A DNA stretch of 64,000 bases from Candidatus Magasanikiibacteriota bacterium (GCA_943359595.1 CALRIA010000003.1:3179-67178), one strand, 5' to 3'. Positions 2,898-44,384 are shown, counted from the first letter of the stretch. The notes: a model not told the origin generated them from the sequence alone. A program made the numbers and translations.

Positions 2898-3017
2898 CTA
2901 CAATAAAAAAATCACCGACCACTCTGCTCTACACCCAAATAAAAATTTAGATACAAAGCAGTTTGGTGGTCGATGACTCTTCCTCCTCCCTACCGTCCTT
3001 GTCCAGAACGAGAAATT

Positions 3018-3215
3018 TCAGACACGTTTCTGTCCACAACGTCCGCACACGACTTGGTGTGCCAGGTTTTGATGCCCGCACTCTAGCTTTGAAACTGACC
3101 GCATCGTCGACGTACGACAACGCCAAGTTTTCTTCTGTGAAAAATAGCCGAGTCGAATCATAGCAGCAAAGAACAGCAATACCGCCGCAATGAGCAATTC
3201 AATCTTCCAATTCAT
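3018..3215 (-). CDS. Small membrane-anchored Cys-rich (zinc-ribbon-like) protein in a GC-rich islet; hypothetical
   Basis: ATG start with upstream 'AGAGGTG' ribosome-binding site. N-terminal hydrophobic helix, then the cysteines 'WRCR...ECGH...CGRCG'. Local GC is far above the surrounding DNA. Confidence 0.4.
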   Translation of the reverse strand: MNWKIELLIAAVLLFFAAMIRLGYFSQKKTWRCRTSTMRSVSKLECGHQNLAHQVVCGRCGQKRV

Positions 3216-3465
3216 GATTCACCTCTGGTTAGGGCGCACGCGCCAGTTATTCTCCCTTATCACACGGGAGAAAAATATTCCAATATATTTTAATTAGAAA
3301 ATTATTCTCCCAAATGACAACTATAAAAAGAGCAAAATCTTTAAAAGACCGTTTACTATAACATAATTATTAAAAAAAGTCAATATACAAGCAGTTTTAC
3401 CTTATTAATAACAACAAAGCAGCACCGCCAAACTCAATATGAGGAGATTCTGATGAATTAAGAAA

Positions 3466-3495
3466 AACAGGACGAAAGTCCTGTTTTTCTTTTTG
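3466..3495. terminator. Hairpin with flanking T/A runs (aacaggac-gaaa-gtcctgtt). Likely terminator for the minus-strand tRNA-Gly.
   Basis: Seen in sequence: 8-bp perfect stem, 4-nt loop, T-runs on both sides. Confidence 0.5.
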
Positions 3496-3567
3496 AGCGG
3501 GTGACGGGAGTCGAACCCGTGTTACCAGTTTGGAAAACTGGAATAATAGCCGTTATATGACACCCGC
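3496..3567 (-). tRNA. tRNA-Gly (anticodon UCC)
   Basis: Manual fold of the reverse complement 'GCGGGTG...TTCGACT...CACCCGC'. Acceptor stem is 7 bp. Anticodon stem is CCAGT/ACTGG with loop TTTCCAA. T-arm is ACGGG-TTCGACT-CCCGT. Confidence 0.8.
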
Positions 3568-3771
3568 AAATGAGTAGCAAAATGACAAAATTTATTTTGT
3601 CATTTCCTACGAATGCCGCGGGAGTACTTTAGTACACCCGCAAGGCAATAATCAACTGAATATGAGAATATATTACAAAATTATCAACAAAAAGTCAACC
3701 CCGAGTGTTGACTAAATTTTTAAAAAATTATAAAATAAATTGTATAAATTAAATACATATTAATTTTAAAT

Positions 3772-3960
3772 ATGCCAAATACATCTATCATAGATGGAGA
3801 AGAAAAAGAACCAACAGAAAGTTTGGAAGATCTACGCGATAATGAATACGAAGAAAGTCTTGATGAATATGGCGATGGCAACCAAGAAGCTGGCTGGCCA
3901 AACGCTAAAAAAGAAAAAAATACCGACCTAGAATCAGATGAAGAAGATGAAACAAACTAA
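3772..3960 (+). CDS. Hypothetical small acidic protein (62 aa)
   Basis: ORF only. Very acidic composition and no clear RBS. Confidence 0.2.
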   Translation: MPNTSIIDGEEKEPTESLEDLRDNEYEESLDEYGDGNQEAGWPNAKKEKNTDLESDEEDETN

Positions 3961-4517
3961 GCGCGGGCGCTATATTCTCCAGTTTCAGTATTGACCAATA
4001 TTTCTTCACCTTCTTTAATAAATATTGGCGCATGTACCAACAAGCCATTATCCAATTTTATTTCTTTAGTCACATTACCTGAAGCACTATCACCTCTTAC
4101 GGCTGGCGGTGCTTCCACCACTTTGTATTGAATTTTCTTTGGTAACTGAATATTCACCGGTCTTTCTTCATACAAACCAACAACTACCCCCAAACCATCT
4201 TTTAAAAATTTTGCATCATTACCCACCAAATCACCATCCATCTCAACCTGTTCATAGCTACTCATATCCATAAAAACATACTTATCGCCATTTTTATAGA
4301 GATACTGCATATTTTGAAACAGGACACTAACGATATCAATAGTTTCACTAGTTTTATAAGTAATTTCAATCACCTTACCATTAGCAAGACTTTTCATGCG
4401 AGTGCGCACAAATGCCGATCCTTTGCCAGGATTAATATGTTGAAATTCCACCACTACATACAAATCATTTTGATGTTTAATCACTACCCCTTTACGTACA
4501 TCAGATGTTGAAGCCAT
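3957..4517 (-). CDS. efp: Elongation factor P
   Basis: 186 aa. 'GKGSAFVRTRMKSL' carries the conserved Lys of the KPGKG loop. EF-P OB-fold architecture. Confidence 0.92.
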   Translation of the reverse strand: MASTSDVRKGVVIKHQNDLYVVVEFQHINPGKGSAFVRTRMKSLANGKVIEITYKTSETIDIVSVLFQNMQYLYKNGDKYVFMDMSSYEQVEMDGDLVGNDAKFLKDGLGVVVGLYEERPVNIQLPKKIQYKVVEAPPAVRGDSASGNVTKEIKLDNGLLVHAPIFIKEGEEILVNTETGEYSARA

Positions 4518-4527
4518 ATAAAAATTA

Positions 4528-5559
4528 TTAATTTATTTGATCAGCGACACTTTGAAAGATCACCTCGTTGATATCTCGTGCACCAGTAAACAATACTACC
4601 ATACGATCCACTCCCAAGGCAATACCTCCAGCTGACGAAATTCCAGAATCGAGTGCCGTAATCAAATCTTCGTCTACTGGCCAAATTTCTTTACCCAACT
4701 GTTCACGCAATGATCGATCTTTTTCTAAGTTAAATTTTTGCACTTTAGGATCAGTTAACTCTCCAAAACCATTAGCCAATTCTAAGCCTCCAATATACAA
4801 CTCCGCTCTCTGCGCATAACGATTATCGTTTTCACATAATTTAGACAATGAACACATCTGAGCAGGATAATCATAAATAAATATTGGACGATCAATCCCT
4901 AAACTTGTCTCAATTTTGTTTAAAAATAATTTGTAAAATAAATCCTCATAGCTATCCTTCATATCAACTGCAAAACCATTCTCTTGAACTAATTTTTTCA
5001 TCTGCTCTACCGACAAATAATCGTCTAAATTTACCTGTAAATATTTCTTCCACAAATCTTTAACAGAAATTCTATCCCAATCATTTAAATAATCAATCTG
5101 AAAAACACGATATTTTAATTTTTCTACATTTAGTTTTTTACCAATAAATTTAAATAAATTTTCGGCATCATCCATAAAATCCCAATACGTTCCAGGCGCA
5201 CGATACCACTCAATCATGGTAAATTCTGGATTATGTGTACCACCAAAACTTTCTACATTACGAAAACATTTACTTATTTCAAACACTCTCTGCCAACCGG
5301 CCGCCAACAATTTTTTTAAAGAATATTCTGGTGAAGTACGCAAATAAAATTTATGAGACACTTGATAAGGGTCAATAAAATCTACTGGTATTGGATTTAG
5401 ATAAGGCTCTTGCCCTGGCAAACGCAAAGCGATAGGTGTTTCTGCCTCCACAAAATCTTGTGACCAAAAAAAATTACGAATCAAATGTAAAATTTGCAAA
5501 CGTTCTTCATACACTTTTTTCAAACGCGGATTATTTTTTAGTTCATTAAAAGTAGACAT
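4528..5559 (-). CDS. epmA: EF-P lysine aminoacylase EpmA (class II LysRS paralog, GenX/PoxA)
   Basis: Class II aaRS catalytic motifs ('FRNE..THNPEFTMIEWY', 'GIALGVDRMVVLFTG'), 343 aa with no anticodon-binding domain. Immediately adjacent to efp. Confidence 0.75.
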   Translation of the reverse strand: MSTFNELKNNPRLKKVYEERLQILHLIRNFFWSQDFVEAETPIALRLPGQEPYLNPIPVDFIDPYQVSHKFYLRTSPEYSLKKLLAAGWQRVFEISKCFRNVESFGGTHNPEFTMIEWYRAPGTYWDFMDDAENLFKFIGKKLNVEKLKYRVFQIDYLNDWDRISVKDLWKKYLQVNLDDYLSVEQMKKLVQENGFAVDMKDSYEDLFYKLFLNKIETSLGIDRPIFIYDYPAQMCSLSKLCENDNRYAQRAELYIGGLELANGFGELTDPKVQKFNLEKDRSLREQLGKEIWPVDEDLITALDSGISSAGGIALGVDRMVVLFTGARDINEVIFQSVADQIN

Positions 5560-33047: not shown

Positions 33048-33719
33048 TTACCACTCTATTCCTCTTTTCCCATGTTTTCTTAAATATTCATTACATTTAG
33101 AAAAATGTTTACAGCCAAAAAAACCAGAGTAGGCTGACAATGGTGAAGGATGCGGTGCCTCCAAAATCAAATGTTTTTTACTATCAATCAACGTCTTTTT
33201 ACTTCTAGCATAACTCCCCCAAAGCATAAAAACGACGTGCTCTCGTTTATCGGAAATCGTTTTAACGACCATATCGGTAAGCTCTTCCCAACCCTTTTCT
33301 CGATGTGAAGCCGGATTATTGGCCACTACAGTTAGAATAGCGTTTAAAAGTAAGACACCTTGTTTGGCCCATGATATCAAATTCCCAGTTGTAAGATCTT
33401 TTCTTATCCCCAAATCATTTTGTATTTCTTTGTAAATATTTTGTAGTGACGGTGGCACCTTAACATTTTCCGGTACAGAAAAACTGAGACCATGTGCTTG
33501 ATTTTCACCATGATAAGGATCTTGGCCCAAAATTACCACCTGAACATTGGAAAAAGTGGTTAACCAAAAGGCTCTAAAAATATCCTGCGGTTTTGGGTAG
33601 ATAGATTTTTTAACATATTCTTCACGCACAAAATCAGCCAATTTCTGAAAACGTTCCGAAGAAAAATAATCCTGTAATATTTTCGCCCATTCTGGCTCAA
33701 TATCTACCTGTTTTGACAT
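33048..33719 (-). CDS. ung: Uracil-DNA glycosylase, family 1
   Basis: 'VVILGQDPYHGENQAHGLSFSV' and 'HPSPLSA' motifs. Confidence 0.9.
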   Translation of the reverse strand: MSKQVDIEPEWAKILQDYFSSERFQKLADFVREEYVKKSIYPKPQDIFRAFWLTTFSNVQVVILGQDPYHGENQAHGLSFSVPENVKVPPSLQNIYKEIQNDLGIRKDLTTGNLISWAKQGVLLLNAILTVVANNPASHREKGWEELTDMVVKTISDKREHVVFMLWGSYARSKKTLIDSKKHLILEAPHPSPLSAYSGFFGCKHFSKCNEYLRKHGKRGIEW

Positions 33720-33799
33720 AGTTGTAATAAAATTATTATTATATATTATTCTATCATGAATGATTGTTTAGACAAAATTACAAAGTGAGAAACAAAAAA

Positions 33800-33865
33800 A
33801 TATTTTAAACACAAAGACCCTCGCTCGGACATCCACTTTTTCAAGTGAACACCGAGACGAGGGTC
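33800..33865 (-). terminator. Long hairpin (gaccctcgctcgg / ccgagacgagggtc) followed by a T-rich run on the minus strand
   Basis: Roughly 13-bp stem with a 1-nt bulge. Downstream of the 33928..34350 ORF. Confidence 0.45.
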
Positions 33866-33927
33866 TAAGAAACCAAGGACCGGACATACGACACCGAAGT
33901 GCCGAGAATCCGAATGACCAAAGTTTC

Positions 33928-34350
33928 TTACTCGCAAGCGACGAGAACGCCGGCGAGTGGAAAAAGTCGATCGCGGAGAGCGCCCAGGTGGACGTACGGA
34001 CGACCACCCTGGATGAAAGCAAACGGCGCAAAGACGACATCTTCCGCGTCCACCACCCGAGCATTCTCGCTGATTGCAAGAACGCACCACCATTTTTTCA
34101 TCTCCTTGGGATGATTTTGAAGGACGTCGGCGAGATCGCCAACGTTCCCGAGAGTAAACCCAGCAGTCGTGAGACGCACGGCGGCTTGTTCGCCCGTCTC
34201 GTTACTGAGACACGGTTCCACCCGTAAATTCACACCAGTGCCATTGACCCAGTTGCACTTCTCGAAGAGCGACTGGAGGTTCTCACTAGAATCGGCGGCG
34301 CCACATTTGCCTTTTATTGCCAGGTTGAACTGGCCGGTTGTATTTTTCAT
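33928..34350 (-). CDS. Hypothetical protein encoded in a GC-rich islet (140 aa from the ATG; 143 aa from the GTG)
   Basis: AGGAG-N8-ATG ribosome-binding site, balanced amino-acid composition with several Cys, hairpin terminator downstream. GC is far above the flanking DNA. No recognisable family. Confidence 0.45.
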   Translation of the reverse strand: MKNTTGQFNLAIKGKCGAADSSENLQSLFEKCNWVNGTGVNLRVEPCLSNETGEQAAVRLTTAGFTLGNVGDLADVLQNHPKEMKKWWCVLAISENARVVDAEDVVFAPFAFIQGGRPYVHLGALRDRLFPLAGVLVACE

Positions 34351-34758
34351 CGTATACACTCCTGCTCACAGGTAATCCACCCCAACGAAAGACACTACCA
34401 GTGTCTAACCCCAAAATGGTACGCCTATAAGCACAACAGACTAGAAACAATTTCCAGCCTTCTTTCTATCTTATTTAGCTTAAATAAGGCAAAAAGAAAA
34501 CTAGTAATAATATTAAAGAATGGATTATTTGGCTAGAATAACAAGTGAGTATAGCATAAAATGATGATTTTGTCAATAATATGTCCTGTAAAGATGTTCT
34601 AACTGCATATTTATGGCTATGCTTAAAGAAAAAGCGACGCACTTGCGTCGCTCAATCTGTCTTGGCGGTGTGTGATTGACGTTATCAGAACTAATGTTAC
34701 AACCTCTCCATGACAACTTAAAATTCCTCATCTGCGCGCTTTAGGTAATTCGCTGTAA

Positions 34759-35517
34759 TTATGATACCAGCTTTTGCATTTTTAGAACACCGTTTACATC
34801 AATAATCTGTATATTTTTATCTTTTATGAAATCCCTAACGCCTTGACTAACTCCGCCTAGACTAATAATAATTCCTTGCGTTACCCCAGCGGATTGCATT
34901 GCTCCATACAGATCTCTAGCGACATGAGGCCCAACTTGTTTTTTATGCGCCTTGCATTGTACAAATATTTTGAAATCATTATCAGCTGTAAGTATTAAAT
35001 CAATACCGCCGTCCCCAGTGCTTTTTGTCTTAATGACCGATGAAAAATGTCCAGATTTTTGAAACAATTTTGAAACAGCTTCCTCAAATTCAAAACCTCC
35101 TAATGAGAACCAATATCCCGCTTCAGCCTTTTTTGCTTCTAAAAGTTTTTCTTTCTTCGCATCTTCCAAGACTTCCTCGTAAGTGTTTAAAGCTTTTAAA
35201 TATTTTGAATAACGCATGCCAAGTGGGTCCATTTTCTTATTAGGAAAAACTAAACTTCCAACAAGTAGCCCAATTATTGGTAAATTTAAATCAAGCCTTT
35301 TCCTTCGATTTTCAAGTTGTTCATTAAGGACTGCGGTCTTCTGATTCTTTTCATACGCTATTTGGGCCATTTTTAACTGTTCAGGATCATATAGCTGAAA
35401 ATTCTCAGCAATAGGCTGTTTTAAGTCTTGCCCTAGTATGGTTCTCTGGTCCATCTTTCGTAATTCTTGTATGAAATCCGAAAAAACATCGTCTTTTAGT
35501 TTATCGCCATTATTCAT
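34759..35517 (-). CDS. Mrr_cat (restriction endonuclease-like) domain protein with N-terminal coiled coil
   Basis: 'STGDGGIDLIL...IFVQCKAHKKQVGPHVARDLYGAM' matches the PD-(D/E)xK Mrr catalytic-domain pattern. Confidence 0.6.
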   Translation of the reverse strand: MNNGDKLKDDVFSDFIQELRKMDQRTILGQDLKQPIAENFQLYDPEQLKMAQIAYEKNQKTAVLNEQLENRRKRLDLNLPIIGLLVGSLVFPNKKMDPLGMRYSKYLKALNTYEEVLEDAKKEKLLEAKKAEAGYWFSLGGFEFEEAVSKLFQKSGHFSSVIKTKSTGDGGIDLILTADNDFKIFVQCKAHKKQVGPHVARDLYGAMQSAGVTQGIIISLGGVSQGVRDFIKDKNIQIIDVNGVLKMQKLVS

Positions 35518-35623
35518 ATTGACTAAAATTTGTTAATAGAAATTATGATCGGGGTTATAACGCTCCCCCTACAATATTAATTTCCATGGTTTTGTATGTG
35601 GTACGACAAGTCTAATCACGTCA

Positions 35624-36250
35624 TTATAAAATCTCAAATTCTAAATTAGACAATCCTAAGCCTTCCAATAATATCTGGTTTATTTTAAATGTCGCTTGAT
35701 TCGCTTTTATTGGGTCATCCGCTAGATCAACAAGCTTTATATTAATACGCCTACTAACCTCAAAAAGTATGTTTTGTAGGTTATTTATTTTATCTGGAGG
35801 ATAGTCGTTTTCTATAGAGGCTTCAATATCAGTTAAACTTTTTGAAAAATCTTCTGCTATTTTATGAATCACTGCTCGCCGATATTTATTAAAATTGTTC
35901 AAAGGTAGGAATATAGTATCACCTTTAATATATTTTTCTAGAATCTTTATCAATGCACCTAGAGGAATATCTGTTTTAATGTTTTTTTCTGTGGTGTTAT
36001 GGACTTTGGCTCTAAGCTTTTCTGCGCTGTCTATAACTCCCTTTAGGGTCTGCTCCATTCTTTGTGATTGAATTAAGAAATAGCCAAGATTGTATCCTTT
36101 TCTAAAATACTCATCATATCGACGTGTTAGTTCATTGCTTCGAATCAAAGTGTTCAATAACTGTATGAGAACAATCTTGTATTCGTAGGCGATGCTTTTA
36201 TCGGCTTCAGTCTGTTGCAACAACGCACGAAGCCCTTCTAGTCTATTCAC
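35624..36250 (-). CDS. Hypothetical protein (208 aa), member of the defence-like gene block
   Basis: ORF with no recognisable motifs. Co-directional within the block. Confidence 0.5.
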   Translation of the reverse strand: MNRLEGLRALLQQTEADKSIAYEYKIVLIQLLNTLIRSNELTRRYDEYFRKGYNLGYFLIQSQRMEQTLKGVIDSAEKLRAKVHNTTEKNIKTDIPLGALIKILEKYIKGDTIFLPLNNFNKYRRAVIHKIAEDFSKSLTDIEASIENDYPPDKINNLQNILFEVSRRINIKLVDLADDPIKANQATFKINQILLEGLGLSNLEFEIL

Positions 36251-36355
36251 AGGTTTTTATATTAAAAAGGGCTTCTAAATTTAGAATTATAGAGTCCTGC
36301 CGATATTGTATATTCAATACGGTGTGTCGTCAACGGCATTCGAACTGGGGTATAG

Positions 36356-37582
36356 CTAAGATTGACTATCCATGGTACGAATTTCTTTTTCAAATAATTT
36401 CCGAATTAAATCCCAATCTATTCTATTAACCCTAGCTCCCGACGGATGAATCACTGCAAATAGTTTATACTTGCCGAATTCTGCCCTTACTGCCATCCGT
36501 CCACCATTAGATTTCCGCGTATATAAAACAGCTTCATTTTGTACAGAACCAAAAATATCTTTTAATCGATCATACGTCTCAATACCCAGAACCAAAATTC
36601 TTTGCGGTCGAAGTGTCTCGATCATTTCTTTTACTTTAGAAAAGCTAAATTCTTCCATCTTAATCCTCGTCTGCTGAGGTATATTTTGTCTCCAAATACT
36701 AATTGTAGGCGCACGGAAAAATATTAAAGGGAATACCACACTGCTCTTAAGAAGATCCAACCCTCCATCAAAATCAAAGAAACTTCTTACCCTTCGTGCC
36801 ATTGGATAGACACCTAGTAGATATTCGTTGGAATTTGGTAATTGAAAATTACTTTCTTCAAAGGCGGCTCTATTCTCTTGCGCAAAATCTTCTTCAGTAC
36901 CGCCCGGCTGATAGCTAATAATCATTAACGGAGGATCAACAACGACTGGTGAATAAAACACTTTAATGCCGTGCCTCCAAAAAGAATATTTATTTTTGTA
37001 TTCCGAATAGACATCTTTTGTTATATTTTCTGCCCATGTTTTTACGTTCATCATTTTCGGAAATTCAATGGGTAATTTACTAAGTTTATCACAAAAAATT
37101 TTTCCAAAACTGCCTTCGCAAATATCCTTATCATTTAACATCGTTTCCTTTACTTTCATCCAGTTTGCGCCAAAAAAATTCTGTTTCTCGAAAAACTCTT
37201 TGAAATCTTGCGCAAAAAATTCAGAAAATTTTTCAAAAGTAGTAAGTCCTCCCGCACGTTGTGCGATATCCCACGGCCTAGCGTTTATATTAGTAATGCC
37301 ATATTCAATTTTAGGATATAAGGTAATTGATTGAAAGTTTTTATATTCACTTTTGAAATAGGTGTACATTACTTGATCGATAAGAACAGTAAAGGCGAGG
37401 CAATACAAAAATCGCATATTATGCCAAGGATCGGTTTTGACATGAGACATAGTATTTTCATTCAAATCTTGAATTGGAATATAAACACCCTCGCCAGGAT
37501 GTTGATAAGTCATTTTTGATTTTGCCATAAATTCGGCAAAATCGTTGCGAAAATTTTTATAGTAGTAATCTTTGGGTTCCAT
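36356..37582 (-). CDS. Hypothetical 408-aa protein. The C-terminal half has uracil-DNA-glycosylase-superfamily-like motifs.
   Basis: 'ISYQPGGTEEDF' resembles the UDG family 4/5 motif A (G-E-x-P-G-x-x-E-D). 'VIHPSGARVNR' resembles motif B (HPS...). The two are about 155 aa apart. The gene starts 5 nt after the RloB-like gene. Confidence 0.55.
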   Translation of the reverse strand: MEPKDYYYKNFRNDFAEFMAKSKMTYQHPGEGVYIPIQDLNENTMSHVKTDPWHNMRFLYCLAFTVLIDQVMYTYFKSEYKNFQSITLYPKIEYGITNINARPWDIAQRAGGLTTFEKFSEFFAQDFKEFFEKQNFFGANWMKVKETMLNDKDICEGSFGKIFCDKLSKLPIEFPKMMNVKTWAENITKDVYSEYKNKYSFWRHGIKVFYSPVVVDPPLMIISYQPGGTEEDFAQENRAAFEESNFQLPNSNEYLLGVYPMARRVRSFFDFDGGLDLLKSSVVFPLIFFRAPTISIWRQNIPQQTRIKMEEFSFSKVKEMIETLRPQRILVLGIETYDRLKDIFGSVQNEAVLYTRKSNGGRMAVRAEFGKYKLFAVIHPSGARVNRIDWDLIRKLFEKEIRTMDSQS

Positions 37583-37586
37583 ATTA

Positions 37587-38129
37587 TTATTTTCCTTCCA
37601 TTATTGTTACTAATCTACCAAGCACATTGATAGTGCCTCTTTTCTTTTCTAATTTTTCCTTTGGAAACAATTCTTTATATCTATTAACATCTCCCCGTCT
37701 TTGTTTAGCAATATATTTTGATTCAAATTCACTTTTACAAAATGCCGAATTGCTTTGAGTATTTGCGCCTAAAATATTTAACAACAGAAATTCTAAGCAT
37801 GGTGTATTTTCAATCATCTCAATACCTCTATTCTTAGCTTCTTGTCTAGCTTTTTTCATTTCTTCTGCGGATTTATCATTATCCAGAACAACAATTTTTC
37901 TATCAAAAGCACCTGGTATTTTAGACGCATCAACTACTATACTCTTAGCATCTCCACCTTTGCCTTTTCTAATAGTGATGGCAACATTACAATCACAAGC
38001 ATAAATACTCTTTAAATATTTTAAGAACATCTCTTCTCCGAGACCCTCCCCAAAAATTAAAAGTGTTTTACTGGCATGGCGTCTCTTTATTTTAAATGGA
38101 TTAGTGCGGGACATAAAATTTTGGCACAT
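37587..38129 (-). CDS. RloB-like / Toprim-like protein (AbiLii-like)
   Basis: N-terminal 'TLLIFGEGLGEEMFLKYL' and 'VVLDNDK' (DxD) are typical of RloB/OLD-Toprim. Overlaps the upstream ATPase gene by 1 nt. Confidence 0.55.
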   Translation of the reverse strand: MCQNFMSRTNPFKIKRRHASKTLLIFGEGLGEEMFLKYLKSIYACDCNVAITIRKGKGGDAKSIVVDASKIPGAFDRKIVVLDNDKSAEEMKKARQEAKNRGIEMIENTPCLEFLLLNILGANTQSNSAFCKSEFESKYIAKQRRGDVNRYKELFPKEKLEKKRGTINVLGRLVTIMEGK

Positions 38130-39343
38130 TAAAGTTTAGGAATAGCGCCGTATGCCCCTGCTATATATTTTGAATAGTAATTATCATCTGCTCGTACTCC
38201 CGTTACATCATCTAATCGCCAAGCCTCACTTTTACCCTCACTATTTTTTTCGATTAGAATAATTTGATATTTATCAAGGCTATTTAAAATACGATGACTA
38301 TGCGTACTAAATAGCAATTGTGCATTTTTAGGATTAGTATCAGGCTGAACAAACAAATCAAATAATGTTGAAACAATCTCTGGGTGTAAATTGACATCAA
38401 ATTCATCTAAGACAACTACACCGCCATTTGATAGGGCAACTAATATGGATTTTAATAATATAAATAATTGCTTTGTACCAGATGATTCATATTCCATTGG
38501 CAAAAATTCGGTACGACCACTAAAAGAGTGCACTACTTTTACATTTAGTGAAAATCCTTTTTCCTTCTTCTCTTTCTTGATATTAAAGGAATTTAAACCA
38601 AGGTCAAATTGAGATAACAATTTTTCCGCTTCTTTTTTAATTTTTTCATTATCAGATTCGCTGTAAAAATCTAACACTCCCAACAATTGTCGCATTGAGT
38701 CTGCTACGAGATGGTCGCCTAACCAACCAGCCTCCACAACATTTGTTTCGACTTTCTGCCAATAATCTAAAATCTCTTGACTTTCCTTATGATTAAATCG
38801 CACGGCTACACTCACAACACTAGCGTTTGGGCGAAGGGAGTTGCTAAATTCTTTCGGTAAATTAAAATTTTTATCATCCAATTCATACTTTTCACTTGCG
38901 CTATTCCACTGACGAGAAAACACTTTTTTGCTTGTCAATTTTTGATTACTTTTATTTTTTACCATTAATTCTTCGCTAATGATTCGTTTTTCAGTCAAAA
39001 TATAACTATATGTAAAAATATTGCCATTAATTTCAAAGTCGGCAGATAATTCTACTGGTTCTTTTTTATGATCACCAAACATAAACGGCTTGACAGGTAT
39101 TGTTGCCGAAGGACTTATGTTAAACGAGTCTACAATTAACCACTTTAAAAATGGTAACACCTTTAAAATATTGGTTTTACCAGAAGCATTTGGCCCTATC
39201 ACAGTTTCTATTTTAGAAAGGCGCGTACCTGAAGGAGCCAAAAAATAACCATAGTTACTTGGTGCTTTATCATTGACCACAAAATTAACTACGGTTGAAT
39301 CACCAAAAGAATAAAAATTCTTACACGAAAATGAGTGTATCAT
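38129..39343 (-). CDS. AAA_21/ABC-type ATPase (RloA/AbiLi/OLD-N-like)
   Basis: Walker A 'GPNASGKTNILK', Walker B 'VVLDEFDVNLHP', and an 'FSTHS' H-loop-like motif. 404 aa. Confidence 0.7.
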   Translation of the reverse strand: MIHSFSCKNFYSFGDSTVVNFVVNDKAPSNYGYFLAPSGTRLSKIETVIGPNASGKTNILKVLPFLKWLIVDSFNISPSATIPVKPFMFGDHKKEPVELSADFEINGNIFTYSYILTEKRIISEELMVKNKSNQKLTSKKVFSRQWNSASEKYELDDKNFNLPKEFSNSLRPNASVVSVAVRFNHKESQEILDYWQKVETNVVEAGWLGDHLVADSMRQLLGVLDFYSESDNEKIKKEAEKLLSQFDLGLNSFNIKKEKKEKGFSLNVKVVHSFSGRTEFLPMEYESSGTKQLFILLKSILVALSNGGVVVLDEFDVNLHPEIVSTLFDLFVQPDTNPKNAQLLFSTHSHRILNSLDKYQIILIEKNSEGKSEAWRLDDVTGVRADDNYYSKYIAGAYGAIPKL

Positions 39344-39720
39344 ATAATTTTGGTTAATAATTTTTTACTATTTGATTATACATTTTGGCTATTAAAGTAG
39401 TGTTTTTTAATATTGTTTGGATTTGGTATTTCATACGTAATAATAAATTAATGATTATATACAATGGGTAAATAAAGCTTAATTTTAATACAAATATGAA
39501 CTGAAAAGAACAAAGTGTGCTTACTACTAATAACCCTATAAATAGCCAAAATGAACAATCTCATTTATTAGCTCCCTAATACTTAATAGTATACTAAAAT
39601 ATCAGTTGTATGTCAATATCCTACAATATTTTGTATGATATGTCATTATACGTGTATTTTTAGCCACCTTTTCTCCATTTATCCGTTAAAACAGAAATGT
39701 TATCCACAGCCATTTTAACT

Positions 39721-39752
39721 AAAAATACAGCTTGTTTTAGCTGTATTTTAAA
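39721..39752 (-). terminator. Hairpin terminator (aaaaatacagc-ttgtttta-gctgtattttt)
   Basis: 10-11 bp stem followed by T-runs. Downstream of the 39778..40377 gene. Confidence 0.5.
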
Positions 39753-39777
39753 TGGTCTCTATCAGTAAAATAAAAAA

Positions 39778-40377
39778 CTATTTCTTTTTTCCGTAAATTA
39801 TGTAGATAAAACCTTTAAAATAAACTAAGAGCAAAACAAGACTCACTATAATAGTGGTGAGTACCGCATAACCGACCGCCTCCCAATAAAATATATAGTT
39901 TTTAATATATTTAACAACATGCGTACTTCCACAACTAAAGTATTTCTTATTTCCTAAACAATATGAATCTTTACTGTTTTGAATATGGGATTGAAGAATA
40001 CTATCTTTTGCAGTATTTTTTACAGCTGGATCCAGAGATTGCAAAACTGTAAAGACTTTGTCTATATTTGTGGTTATGTCATTATTGCAAACAGCATAAT
40101 TTTTGAGAGAAAAATCTGACAAGTAATCATACCCCCTTGTTGCGTCATTTTTACACGCTAAAGTGCCATTCTTTTCTAAAAATGACGGTACGGTATTTAC
40201 TAATTCAGGATGATTTTTAGTATAATCAGTTAACGTAATAGTAATATCTGTATTTTCAAAAGTGTTTTCTATCGAAGATGAGGCGACGAAATACGATATT
40301 CCTAAAGTGGCAATAATTACAACTACAAACAGCACTTTAAAAAAGCGATGCCACCATTTGCTATTAAGATTTTCCAT
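39778..40377 (-). CDS. Hypothetical membrane protein (two TM helices, Cys-containing extracytoplasmic middle)
   Basis: Hydrophobic N- and C-terminal helices. 199 aa. Confidence 0.55.
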   Translation of the reverse strand: MENLNSKWWHRFFKVLFVVVIIATLGISYFVASSSIENTFENTDITITLTDYTKNHPELVNTVPSFLEKNGTLACKNDATRGYDYLSDFSLKNYAVCNNDITTNIDKVFTVLQSLDPAVKNTAKDSILQSHIQNSKDSYCLGNKKYFSCGSTHVVKYIKNYIFYWEAVGYAVLTTIIVSLVLLLVYFKGFIYIIYGKKK

Positions 40378-40398
40378 ACATTATTTAAAATAAAATTA

Positions 40399-40800
40399 CT
40401 AATTTGCCATTTGTTTTTCTAATTCTTGTTCCTGTTGAGGCGTTAATGGTTGCACGGTAATTGGATTAGGGTCAGATTCGAACTTAGAGTAATAATTGTT
40501 ATCCCAATCATCTACACACAACACGCTCGCATGTTCAAAAATTCCAGGTATTTTAATTGAATGTTTTTCGGATTTAGTATTTGCTTCAGTAGTATACATA
40601 TATGGAACTGCTGCACTACCAGCGGAATATCTCCAAACACAGATAGAACCATTTCCTGTTGGGACATCAACAAAATAAGTTTCCAGCTGACTAGAGACTA
40701 CAATGTTTTTAATCATCGGATTGTTGCTTTGTGCATTATTACTATTACAGCCAGCCCCTAATAAAACAACTCCGACTAATAACAAAAATATCTTTTTCAT
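40399..40800 (-). CDS. Hypothetical lipoprotein
   Basis: Lipobox 'LLGAGC' after a signal peptide. 133 aa. Confidence 0.6.
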   Translation of the reverse strand: MKKIFLLLVGVVLLGAGCNSNNAQSNNPMIKNIVVSSQLETYFVDVPTGNGSICVWRYSAGSAAVPYMYTTEANTKSEKHSIKIPGIFEHASVLCVDDWDNNYYSKFESDPNPITVQPLTPQQEQELEKQMAN

Positions 40801-40860
40801 AATTTAAAATATTTGATAAGTTAATAATAAACCTTTTTGTTTGTTTTTACAAACACAAAA

Positions 40861-40967
40861 GGCTACGTGTCTTCTGGTGATCCCTTTCGGAATCCAACAA
40901 CCTTTCGATTGTTGACTAAACGAATAATACCAGAGACGGCGTAGCCATCTCTATATTCGTTTAGTTT
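40861..40967. repeat. Cluster of interleaved inverted repeats: GGCTACG..TCTGGT / ACCAGA..CGTAGCC, and ACTAAACGAATA / TATTCGTTTAGT
   Basis: Read directly. The second pair is a 12-bp perfect inverted repeat. Confidence 0.6.
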
Positions 40968-41075
40968 TTCGACCGTGCCCTGTGCATAACACAAAGTTTA
41001 GGTCTTTAAATTGTTGTGTGTATATTACCAAATAGTTGCCAAAAAATCAATAACACCAAGTAATAACCACCATTT

Positions 41076-41104
41076 TTGACACCCCAAAATATTAGTGATA
41101 TAAT
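41076..41104 (+). promoter_or_regulatory. Perfect consensus sigma70 promoter TTGACA-N17-TATAAT
   Basis: Read directly. Points into the Rep leader. Confidence 0.6.
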
Positions 41105-41240
41105 ACTTATGTTCCGATGAGAAACTATTATATAACGCTCGGAACATATTACTGTATTTGTGCTCGGGAAGGATTGCACCCCCTACTAAGGGAGGTGTTT
41201 TGTTTTATATCTACTTTCTACCTTTGGGTACAGTGCAGAT

Positions 41241-41275
41241 CAGTTTTTCGGGCGGTTGCCCCGCCCGAAAAACTG
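41241..41275 (+). promoter_or_regulatory. 15-bp perfect hairpin (cagtttttcgggcgg-ttgcc-ccgcccgaaaaactg) in the Rep leader. Candidate replication-origin or attenuator structure.
   Basis: Read directly. Confidence 0.5.
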
Positions 41276-41433
41276 GCTGCCTGCCAAGGAGAAAGAGAAA
41301 ACAAAGATTCCCGTTGTCGGTGTATCAGGCCTGTGCACTGGCATAAATCTGTTTAGCCTCATTAACTAGATTATAAGCACACATTTAACCGCAGAATGAG
41401 GCTACTATTGTAATCCGCTCTTTTAACAACATC

Positions 41434-42303
41434 ATGCCTATGATTGAACTGTATGACTTTAAACTAATAAAGTCTGGTAAAGAAATCGAGGTGTATGTGT
41501 ATAAAACAAAGAAAATATTAAAGGGCTACACCCGAAAGAAAAACCACACCGAAGAACAAAAGATACTGATAAAAGAAAAACAAGCCCAAGCCAAACAAAA
41601 AGAAGTTGAATATATGGAACTGATGGAAGAATGGGGTTGCGAGCAAGAAGTCGCTGACTTGCACCAAACCCAAAACCAAAAAACCACCTTTTCCATATCT
41701 CGTACTAGAACCAACATTCGCCGTCTCACCAATGCTAACCCACATCTGCGTAAATTCCTCACGCTAACCTTTGCAGAAAGCACGACAGAGCTCTTAGAGG
41801 CCAACCACCTGTTCAACACCGCTATGAAACGAATACTGCGAGCCAAACCAGCCTTTGAATATATCGCCGTCGTTGAATTTCAGAAAGACATTGACTATTA
41901 CGGCAACAAAAAAGAAAAAGGCGGATCTGTTCATTACCACCTATTGTGCAACATTGTCTTGCCCGACAATGCTGATACATTTGCGTGGGAAAGACGGTTT
42001 GCGATGAAGTATTGGAAAAATGGGTTTGTGAAAATACGAGAGGTAAATACTGTAACCAATATGGGTGCGTATTTCTGTAAATATCTTGGAAAAGATATGT
42101 TTGATAAAAGAATGTTTGGCAAAAAGAAATTCTTTTGTTCTCGACAATTAAATAAGCCAGTTGAGATGACTGGCGGTAAAGCAATTAGTTTTTTCAATAA
42201 ATTTGTTAAGCCGACCCTTAAACCGATCTTTGAAAAAACTTTCACCAGTGAATATACTGGCAAGGTGGAGTATTCCGCCTACACTCTTAAAGAAGATTCC
42301 TAA
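41434..42303 (+). CDS. rep: Rolling-circle replication initiator (HUH endonuclease, pC194/Rep_1-like)
   Basis: Motif 1 'FLTLTF', HUH motif 'HYHLL', Tyr motif 'YFCKYLGKD'. Confidence 0.65.
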   Translation: MPMIELYDFKLIKSGKEIEVYVYKTKKILKGYTRKKNHTEEQKILIKEKQAQAKQKEVEYMELMEEWGCEQEVADLHQTQNQKTTFSISRTRTNIRRLTNANPHLRKFLTLTFAESTTELLEANHLFNTAMKRILRAKPAFEYIAVVEFQKDIDYYGNKKEKGGSVHYHLLCNIVLPDNADTFAWERRFAMKYWKNGFVKIREVNTVTNMGAYFCKYLGKDMFDKRMFGKKKFFCSRQLNKPVEMTGGKAISFFNKFVKPTLKPIFEKTFTSEYTGKVEYSAYTLKEDS

Positions 42304-42348
42304 TTAAGTTTAAACATATTTTTATGGCTTTCATCAACACAAAACGGT

Positions 42349-42531
42349 ATGCAATTAACGGACAATTTTGTCCTGAAATTCCAGACGATCTACGAGGCGG
42401 AATTTCATGAGAAATTGAGCTACGAAAAAGCGTATGCAGAATGTATGGACATGTTCGTCCTTGGAAAAATACTATTTAGACCTGTGAGTAAGCAGGATAT
42501 ACACGCTCTTGAATTGAGCAAAGAAAATTGA
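42349..42531 (+). CDS. Hypothetical 60-aa protein between rep and the recombinase gene
   Basis: ORF only. Position suggests an accessory or directionality factor. Confidence 0.35.
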   Translation: MQLTDNFVLKFQTIYEAEFHEKLSYEKAYAECMDMFVLGKILFRPVSKQDIHALELSKEN

Positions 42532-42542
42532 TACTATATGTG

Positions 42543-42657
42543 GGCTTACCCGATACAATACAATAAACGCTATTAAAGACTTTTTTATTTTCATACCAGA
42601 GATGGGCAGTCCTGTCCGATGAAATAGTCTTTTTTAGCTATTTGTGTCGGGTAAGCC
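42543..42657. repeat. 11-bp inverted repeat (ggcttacccga / tcgggtaagcc) bracketing about 93 bp just upstream of the recombinase start
   Basis: Read directly. Confidence 0.55.
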
Positions 42658-42692
42658 AGGGCTGTCCTTTTTTGTTTTTAATCATTTTCATT

Positions 42693-44384
<1,692 letters not shown>

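Follow-up and report, generated by a model that had tools for sequence, protein, structure and literature searches.

A GC-rich islet in a Candidatus Magasanikiibacteriota genome as a probable orphan target gene of a diversity-generating retroelement

Diversity-generating retroelements (DGRs) with variable proteins of the C-type-lectin (CLec) type (for example, Mtd of Bordetella phage BPP-1, TvpA of Treponema denticola, and candidate phyla radiation (CPR) and archaeal proteins) have a target gene whose C-terminal variable region (VR) lies on the CLec fold, a template repeat (TR) with adenine-only differences to the VR, a bAvd protein and a reverse transcriptase (RT), arranged in the order target-TR-avd-RT, together with a GC-rich VR end and a hairpin located beyond the TR/VR homology. 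The hairpin or cruciform downstream of the VR in BPP-1 is needed for retrohoming (Guo et al. 2011, PMC3240598), targets remote from the retroelement have been documented in Treponema, and a single type of cassette, architecture B3, makes up 90% of CPR DGRs (Wu et al. 2018, PMC5758913). Here we describe a GC-rich islet in a 64-kb stretch of DNA from Candidatus Magasanikiibacteriota bacterium (GCA_943359595.1, CALRIA010000003.1:3179-67178; hereafter the window, with coordinates counted from its first letter and the islet gene on the minus strand), which we consider to be, most probably, the target-gene half of a Patescibacteria DGR cassette, cut off from its mutagenesis half and left as an orphan with a frozen binding surface.

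The islet family agrees with these systems in its C-terminal VR on a CLec fold, its GC-rich VR end and its hairpin beyond the TR/VR homology, and loci homologous to the islet have the adenine-marked TR, the bAvd protein, the RT and the cassette order as well. It departs from them in that its domain is minimal (about 100 aa) and has no match in Pfam, NCBIfam or PHROGs, in that its high GC content extends over the whole gene, beyond the VR, and in that the window copy is without TR, Avd and RT. CPR DGR targets without recognisable domains are represented by the ungrouped and UVR1-6 VR classes, with a CLec fold left open for the UVR classes (Wu et al. 2018); the islet family, for which our model gives a CLec fold, may be one of the UVR1-6 classes. 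For DGRs, CLec variable proteins, post-VR hairpins and remote targets have all been described before (PMC5758913, PMC3240598), and the islet element is a new, orphaned member of this kind of system, with unusually elaborate conserved non-coding elements.

Family, predicted fold and retroelement-linked homologues of the islet gene

The islet is the longest and highest GC excursion of the 64 kb (33801-34450, peak 0.57, against a window mean of 0.343); counted in 200-nt steps, its GC content is 0.525-0.56 across 33800-34299 and 0.505 at 34200-34399, against 0.27-0.41 in the flanks. The compositional anomaly reported in the initial annotation is thus real (GC 0.50-0.57 at 33800-34450), and it extends to the third codon positions, as the GC content at these positions (GC3) is 0.60 in the open reading frame (ORF) of the islet, compared with a mean of 0.264 and a maximum of 0.42 in 36 host ORFs. 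The overlapping ORFs on both strands, which that annotation took as a sign of the anomaly, are likewise present, with seven ORFs of at least 40 aa overlapping the islet, as is expected of GC-rich DNA. The gene itself encodes 140 aa (34350..33928, with the stop codon TAA at 33930..33928) or, alternatively, 143 aa from an upstream GTG, and direct reading of the sequence places the ribosome-binding site AGGAG (34363..34359) 8 nt before the ATG, exactly as first described. Having its own promoter, ribosome-binding site and terminator, the islet is supported as a genuine, self-contained protein-coding unit that is compositionally foreign to its surroundings; only the bounds initially given to it were too short, as the unit begins at a promoter at 34576..34548. 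It lies between an Mrr-like gene and ung (33720-34758, compared with L163 8962-10000 and with L164), where the gene tables of two public contigs list no gene, and exact look-ups found neither the 140-aa nor the 143-aa product on record. The ORF appears to have been overlooked by gene calling, and what passed for 1 kb of uncalled 'intergenic' DNA in this Patescibacteria genome can now be described as a defined gene.

An exhaustive HMMER search of 1.84 billion cluster representatives yielded 66 related proteins at E<=1e-3, a set that includes 25 with E<=1e-10. As a word-indexed search of 5.8 billion proteins returned one homologue with the single protein and seven with a profile, the exhaustive search was needed to see the family. 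Its members align to islet residues ~35-140, mostly at their own C-termini, and have variable N-terminal extensions, some of them consisting of the core of about 100 aa alone. The family consensus (...GTGVRxVxLRVEPxLxGETxEQAAxRLxxxGxxLANxGDLAGFLxxHPxEVxKWxWVxAxSEDSRW) leads into a tail of alternating conserved and hypervariable positions that ends in GVLVxCE. All of the cysteine-containing peptides that had been pointed out in the islet protein are present, but of their cysteines only C139 is common in the family. Residues 1-39 of the window protein are lineage-specific and modelled with low confidence; residues 40-140 are confidently predicted to form a conserved minimal CLec fold, with the VR sitting on this scaffold. 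Given that the protein has no hydrophobic N-terminal stretch, it is probably cytoplasmic. Searches of Pfam, NCBIfam, PHROGs and PADLOC gave no significant match for the islet protein or for longer family members, and a PDB sequence-profile search gave nothing meaningful; the target family is uncovered by curated libraries (Pfam, NCBIfam, PHROGs). An uncurated family of ~66 representative clusters thereby gains a name, that of DGR variable proteins with a minimal CLec fold.

The link to DGRs comes from the loci of the homologues. On the contig of locus L002, from a Patescibacteria metagenome-assembled genome (MAG), the homologue P0068 is followed by bAvd and an RVT_1 reverse transcriptase, and the final 131 nt of the target gene are repeated 494 nt downstream at 85% identity. 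The same arrangement recurs in five loci (L002/L011, L012, L016, L019 and L020), where the last ~130 nt of the gene are repeated 360-380 nt past the stop codon, beside Avd and RT, and the cassette order is target-TR-avd-RT. As 85 of the 96 mismatches between VR and TR in these five loci fall on TR adenines, the element is a DGR and the protein its variable protein. All DGR-linked loci further have a VR that ends in ...GCGAGT and a TR that ends in ...GCTAGT (GTGAGT in L020). The homologous loci are labelled as Patescibacteria (Magasanikbacteria and Parcubacteria), plus two MAGs labelled Gammaproteobacteria; L020 is GW2011_GWA2_47_26, from the groundwater data set that was used in CPR DGR surveys. 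Judged by sequence comparison, the islet gene belongs to this family of DGR variable proteins.

The complete cassettes would operate in the manner of described DGRs: the TR, ~370 nt downstream of the target, would be transcribed, an Avd-assisted reverse transcriptase would copy it with errors at adenines, and the cDNA would replace the VR, guided, by analogy with BPP-1, by the GC-rich VR 3' end (the initiation of mutagenic homing (IMH) site) and the adjoining hairpin. The last 43 residues of the protein would then form a variable ligand-binding region on the minimal CLec fold. The corresponding part of the islet gene (codons 98-140, 34059..33931) aligns to the VR/TR segment of L019, L002, L012, L016 and L020, contains 9% A on the coding strand and ends in an IMH-like GC-rich stretch (GGCGTTCTCGTCGCTTGCGAG, 33951..33931) that is identical at 19 of 21 positions to that of L019, L105 and L009 (GGCGTCCTCGTCGCCTGCGAG) and carries the VR-type GCGAGT, not the TR-type GCTAGT. 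Compared with the nearest TR, that of L019, the window VR differs at 20 of the 27 sites that are adenines in the TR but at only 27 of the remaining 101 (Fisher p=1.1e-5). Such a pattern is what adenine-directed mutagenesis leaves behind; it records past diversification, or diversifying selection, and not current activity. The window copy thus has the GC-rich IMH-type VR end, the post-VR hairpin, the CLec scaffold and the adenine-site variability of a DGR target, but neither a TR paired with it by adenine-only differences nor an RT and Avd in the same cassette. A scan of metagenomes with an 18-nt IMH pattern gave, among the matches listed, one true relative (L105) beside chance matches in GC-rich contigs, and a viral scan gave no relatives.

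High GC content is common to the family, whose members have a GC content of 0.55-0.68 and a GC3 of 0.60-0.91 in host genomes of 0.34-0.48 GC; the RT and Avd genes of these cassettes have a far lower GC content, as in L019, where GC3 is 0.82 in the target against 0.29 in each of RT and Avd. Adenine is avoided in particular: third-position A outside the VR amounts to 0.04-0.11 in the relatives and 0.15 in the window, and is below third-position T in every family member. Avoidance of adenine in the VR itself is to be expected, as TR adenines are mutated. Given that the high GC content persists across lineages whose proteins are 45-60% identical, we regard it as a maintained trait of the target gene itself and not as the stamp of an import, which removes the ground on which the islet had been taken for a recent horizontal acquisition. 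A GC island in an AT-rich genome thus need not signal recent transfer; here it would be the compositional signature of a hypermutation target.

Conserved non-coding elements of the target gene

The islet gene is preceded by a predicted promoter (34576..34548) that combines a -35 box TTGACA (34576..34571), a 17-nt spacer and a TG-extended -10 box TATACT (34553..34548), matches the consensus at 11 of 12 positions in a promoter scan in addition to its TG extension, and lies just downstream of the terminator of the Mrr-like gene (34653..34632). The same promoter (TTGACAAAA...TGnTATAmT) is found upstream of the homologues in L002, L012, L014-L018 and L020. Between promoter and gene, ~110 nt upstream of the ATG, fold prediction places a long hairpin in the 5' untranslated region (UTR; 34504..34454), the pyrimidine-rich 5' arm of which (CTAGTTTTCTTTTTGCC...) pairs with a purine-rich 3' arm (...GATAGAAAGAAGGCTGG). 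This hairpin, with the purine-rich arm AGAAAGAAGGCTGG, is kept in 11 of 13 loci (the window and 10 of the 12 related loci), and the relatives have the same basal stem with variable apical parts; it has no Rfam match. Outside the window, the hairpin (purine arm AGAAAGAAGGCYRG) was seen ~80-115 nt before the start codon in L002, L009, L012, L014-L017, L019, L020 and L105, and repetitive extragenic palindromic (REP)-like hairpins are inserted into it in L002 and L105.

Downstream of the stop codon, where the initial annotation described one strong hairpin and a T-run, the structure is indeed strong but consists of two hairpins, which adjoin in the predicted RNA fold and are followed by UUUGUGUUU (minimum free energy -62.3 kcal/mol, z-score -8.9 against shuffled sequences). 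The first, H1, is 65 nt long (33930..33866, from folding), three-tiered, begins at the stop codon and contains the inner stem CGGCAC-TTCG-GTGTCG. The second, H2 (33865..33816, from folding), forms an intrinsic terminator with the T-run at 33815..33807 (TTTGTGTTT) and is kept in L002, L009, L012, L016, L019, L020 and L105.

H1 is supported by comparison between loci. With its structure set by hand for the pair counts (RNAalifold on the MAFFT alignment gave only part of H1), 84% of the cells of a 12-sequence alignment are paired, against 34-50% when the partners are slid, and compensatory double changes occur in four pairs, with a covariation score above that of all 500 shuffles. With the covariance model, the window H1 reaches 84.7 bits, a score equalled by L009, and L019 and L105 reach 86.7-87.3 bits. 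Each family locus has exactly one match, which in every case follows the VR and in no case the TR, and ~480 kb of unrelated contigs have none. The 5' arm of H1 carries YGG motifs at an exact spacing of 8 nt; there are three or four of them (consensus nCACTYGG) in the window (33890-33925, minus strand) and in L001, L002, L012, L016, L019, L020 and L105, a periodicity that Tandem Repeats Finder did not call. One further, weak H1-like match (15.8 bits, E 0.32) lies upstream of the target gene of L017 (5569-5616) and may be a remnant of a tandem target. We also considered an integron attC site for H1 and rejected it: on direct reading, the base of the hairpin (AAGAAAC...GGTTTCTT) is unlike the RYYYAAC and GTTRRRY core sites, and the sole recombinase in the window is a large serine recombinase, not an IntI as for an integron cassette.

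H1 resembles the BPP-1 hairpin in being a GC-rich inverted repeat that lies directly 3' of the VR, outside the TR/VR homology, and in being present at the target and absent at the template. Described BPP-1-type elements have stems of 7-10 bp and 4-nt GRNA loops (PMC3240598), whereas H1, as a putative element of this kind, has 65 nt, three tiers, usually a TTCG loop and the YGG motifs at 8-nt spacing. The conserved UTR structures thus provide concrete candidate elements for target recognition by CPR DGRs. To our knowledge, this recognition has been reconstituted by nobody.

Probable orphaning of the target gene and alternative readings

Sensitive blastn of the islet against the whole 64-kb window found no repeat that could serve as its TR, and tblastn with the L002 RT and Avd as queries gave no match in the window better than E=1.5. 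Such orphans are common: like the window, L105, L018, L013 and L014 are target-only loci, with no TR, Avd or RT in flanks of 2-8 kb. L105 is syntenic on both sides with the complete cassette of L019, the ~2.4 kb of TR, Avd and RT in L019 (2465-4875) corresponding to ~110 nt in L105 (2183-2293), and in L009 an 89-nt remnant of the RT 3' end (2716-2803) stands directly after H2. This synteny and this remnant show directly that the target-only state is derived, through deletion of the TR-Avd-RT half. The syntenic set of complete cassette, target-only locus and target with RT remnant thereby documents the orphaning of DGR targets, to which surveys anchored on the RT are blind.

The window copy still has its strong promoter and the 5'-UTR hairpin, its ORF is intact, its VR is poor in A and has the IMH-like end, and H1 and the terminator are in place. 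We envision that, having lost its cognate TR, Avd and RT, it is most likely still expressed as a binding protein of fixed specificity that drifts towards the AT-rich composition of its host. Two steps of this reading are inferred, namely a halt of diversification and ligand binding by the protein. Composition points in this direction: relative to the three closest relatives, the substitutions specific to the window comprise 42 GC>AT and 12 AT>GC changes (4:5, 4:5 and 12:10 for the same counts in the three relatives), and the GC3 of the window copy (0.60) is the family minimum. Together with the missing TR, this bias and this low GC3 favour a frozen VR in a copy that is slowly ameliorating.

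Some points weigh against a frozen relic. The count of 42:12 is not polarised by an outgroup, and the synonymous to non-synonymous ratio of the window lineage in the scaffold (11:16) does not clearly separate purifying selection from relaxation. The window is matched at 99.93% by contig CBAKXT010000002.1 (GCA_964734745.1) and at 100% by a Logan contig of ERR5863107; the former, as a sister strain, differs by 13 single-nucleotide polymorphisms (SNPs) and one indel in 20.7 kb and by none in the islet (the window, L164 and L163 being compared), but this comparison involves one sister sequence, and the absence of SNPs from the islet is weak evidence given that only ~0.4 would be expected there by chance. 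The inspected DNA amounts to ~74 kb of a roughly 1-Mb genome, which leaves room for a second TR elsewhere. For a relic, the copy also has its cis elements in strikingly good order (H1 at 84.7 bits, IMH, ORF and promoter), as it might if a TR lay in another part of the genome.

These points lead to the alternative that the islet is an active remote target, which a DGR with its TR at another place in the genome still diversifies in trans, perhaps using an RT and Avd nearby. Such machinery exists, as the same contig carries a complete DGR, the only one seen in this genome, 3-6 kb ahead of window position 1 and ~39 kb away from the islet (L165, 3386-5897), with RVT_1 at 3386-4285, bAvd at 4367-4798, a TR at 4816-4941 and a VR at 5315-5440 in a GC-rich target of 194 aa (GC3 0.75). 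Its VR and TR differ by 18 mismatches (17 at adenines and one at a T), its RT is 71% identical to, and of the same clade as, that of L019, the partner of an islet-type target, and it has the same GCGAGT/GCTAGT ends as the L019-type cassettes. With the islet as a DGR-type target tens of kb from a DGR RT, the situation recalls the documented remote targets of Treponema (Wu et al. 2018, PMC5758913), and an intact IMH, H1, promoter and ORF are what an active target would have. Those remote targets, however, are defined by adenine-only differences to a TR (PMC5758913), and the only TR visible near the islet is unrelated to it: neither the L165 TR nor its target protein, which is of a different family, can be aligned with the islet, and the post-stop region of L165 matches the H1 model at noise level only. 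As cDNA integration needs TR/VR homology, a requirement established for BPP-1 (PMC3240598), the L165 DGR should be unable to rewrite the islet VR. Neither the window nor the adjoining 10 kb contains a homologous TR, the sister strain has the same VR despite its differences elsewhere, several VR codons, as read from the sequences, deviate from the NNY pattern expected of AAY template codons, and the 2018 survey saw no remote targets among CPR DGRs (PMC5758913). We accordingly hold an active remote target to be unlikely. As an observation apart, CTTGG-type repeats also follow the stop codon of the unrelated L165 target.

We see a slimmer chance still that target recognition or maintenance in the CPR DGR clade of the islet differs from the BPP-1 model, a thought to which the conserved UTR hairpins and the A-poor, GC-rich whole gene give rise. 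In one version, retrohoming may involve the transcript of the target or a longer part of the gene; stand-alone target modules may in another version be spare acceptors that a resident RT and Avd of the same clade re-arm once a matching TR is given.

To return to the orphan target, its surroundings had suggested a different origin, namely a recently acquired small toxin, immunity or anti-defence gene of the neighbouring defence island. The islet does adjoin an Mrr-type nuclease and AbiLi/AbiLii, and its composition is anomalous, but PADLOC, Pfam, NCBIfam and PHROGs return no match, the homologues are DGR variable proteins that stand beside housekeeping genes or DGR parts and not beside defence genes, the high GC content is a stable family trait and not a signature of transfer, and the Mrr terminator and the islet's own promoter set it apart from the island; we regard such a role as highly improbable. 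Hardly credible at all is the further suggestion of a mis-called structured RNA with an incidental ORF, for although a GC-rich island with very stable, conserved hairpins at both ends would suit one, Rfam gives no family match (none at gathering score in 33600-34700 and none inside the islet at E<=10), ~66 representative proteins share the 140-codon frame at the protein level, with a confident predicted fold, and the structured parts belong to the UTRs and not to the ORF.

Other features of the window

The region that adjoins the islet (34759-44384) is likely to be an integrated island of the mobile or defence type, with genes for an Mrr-type restriction nuclease, for AbiLii/RloB (37587-38129) and AbiLi (38129-39343), for Rep (41434-42303) and for a large serine recombinase (42642-44384), along with ORFs that are unknown. 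A LOOT RNA (RF03000) on the minus strand (40879-41004) scores 84.5 bits, well above the gathering score of 46.4, and is flanked by a 133-aa ORF and a Rep_ORF2-G2P replication gene. The 3' end of the recombinase gene overlaps a tRNA-Ser(tga) on the opposite strand (44267-44352).

A second GC-rich patch of the window (2901-3250, minus strand, up to 0.50), presumably the 'islet 1' of the earlier reader, shows no similarity to the DGR-target islet. The 62-aa product of an ORF in this patch (3215..3027) begins with a hydrophobic helix and has a tail rich in cysteines (C...C...CxxC).
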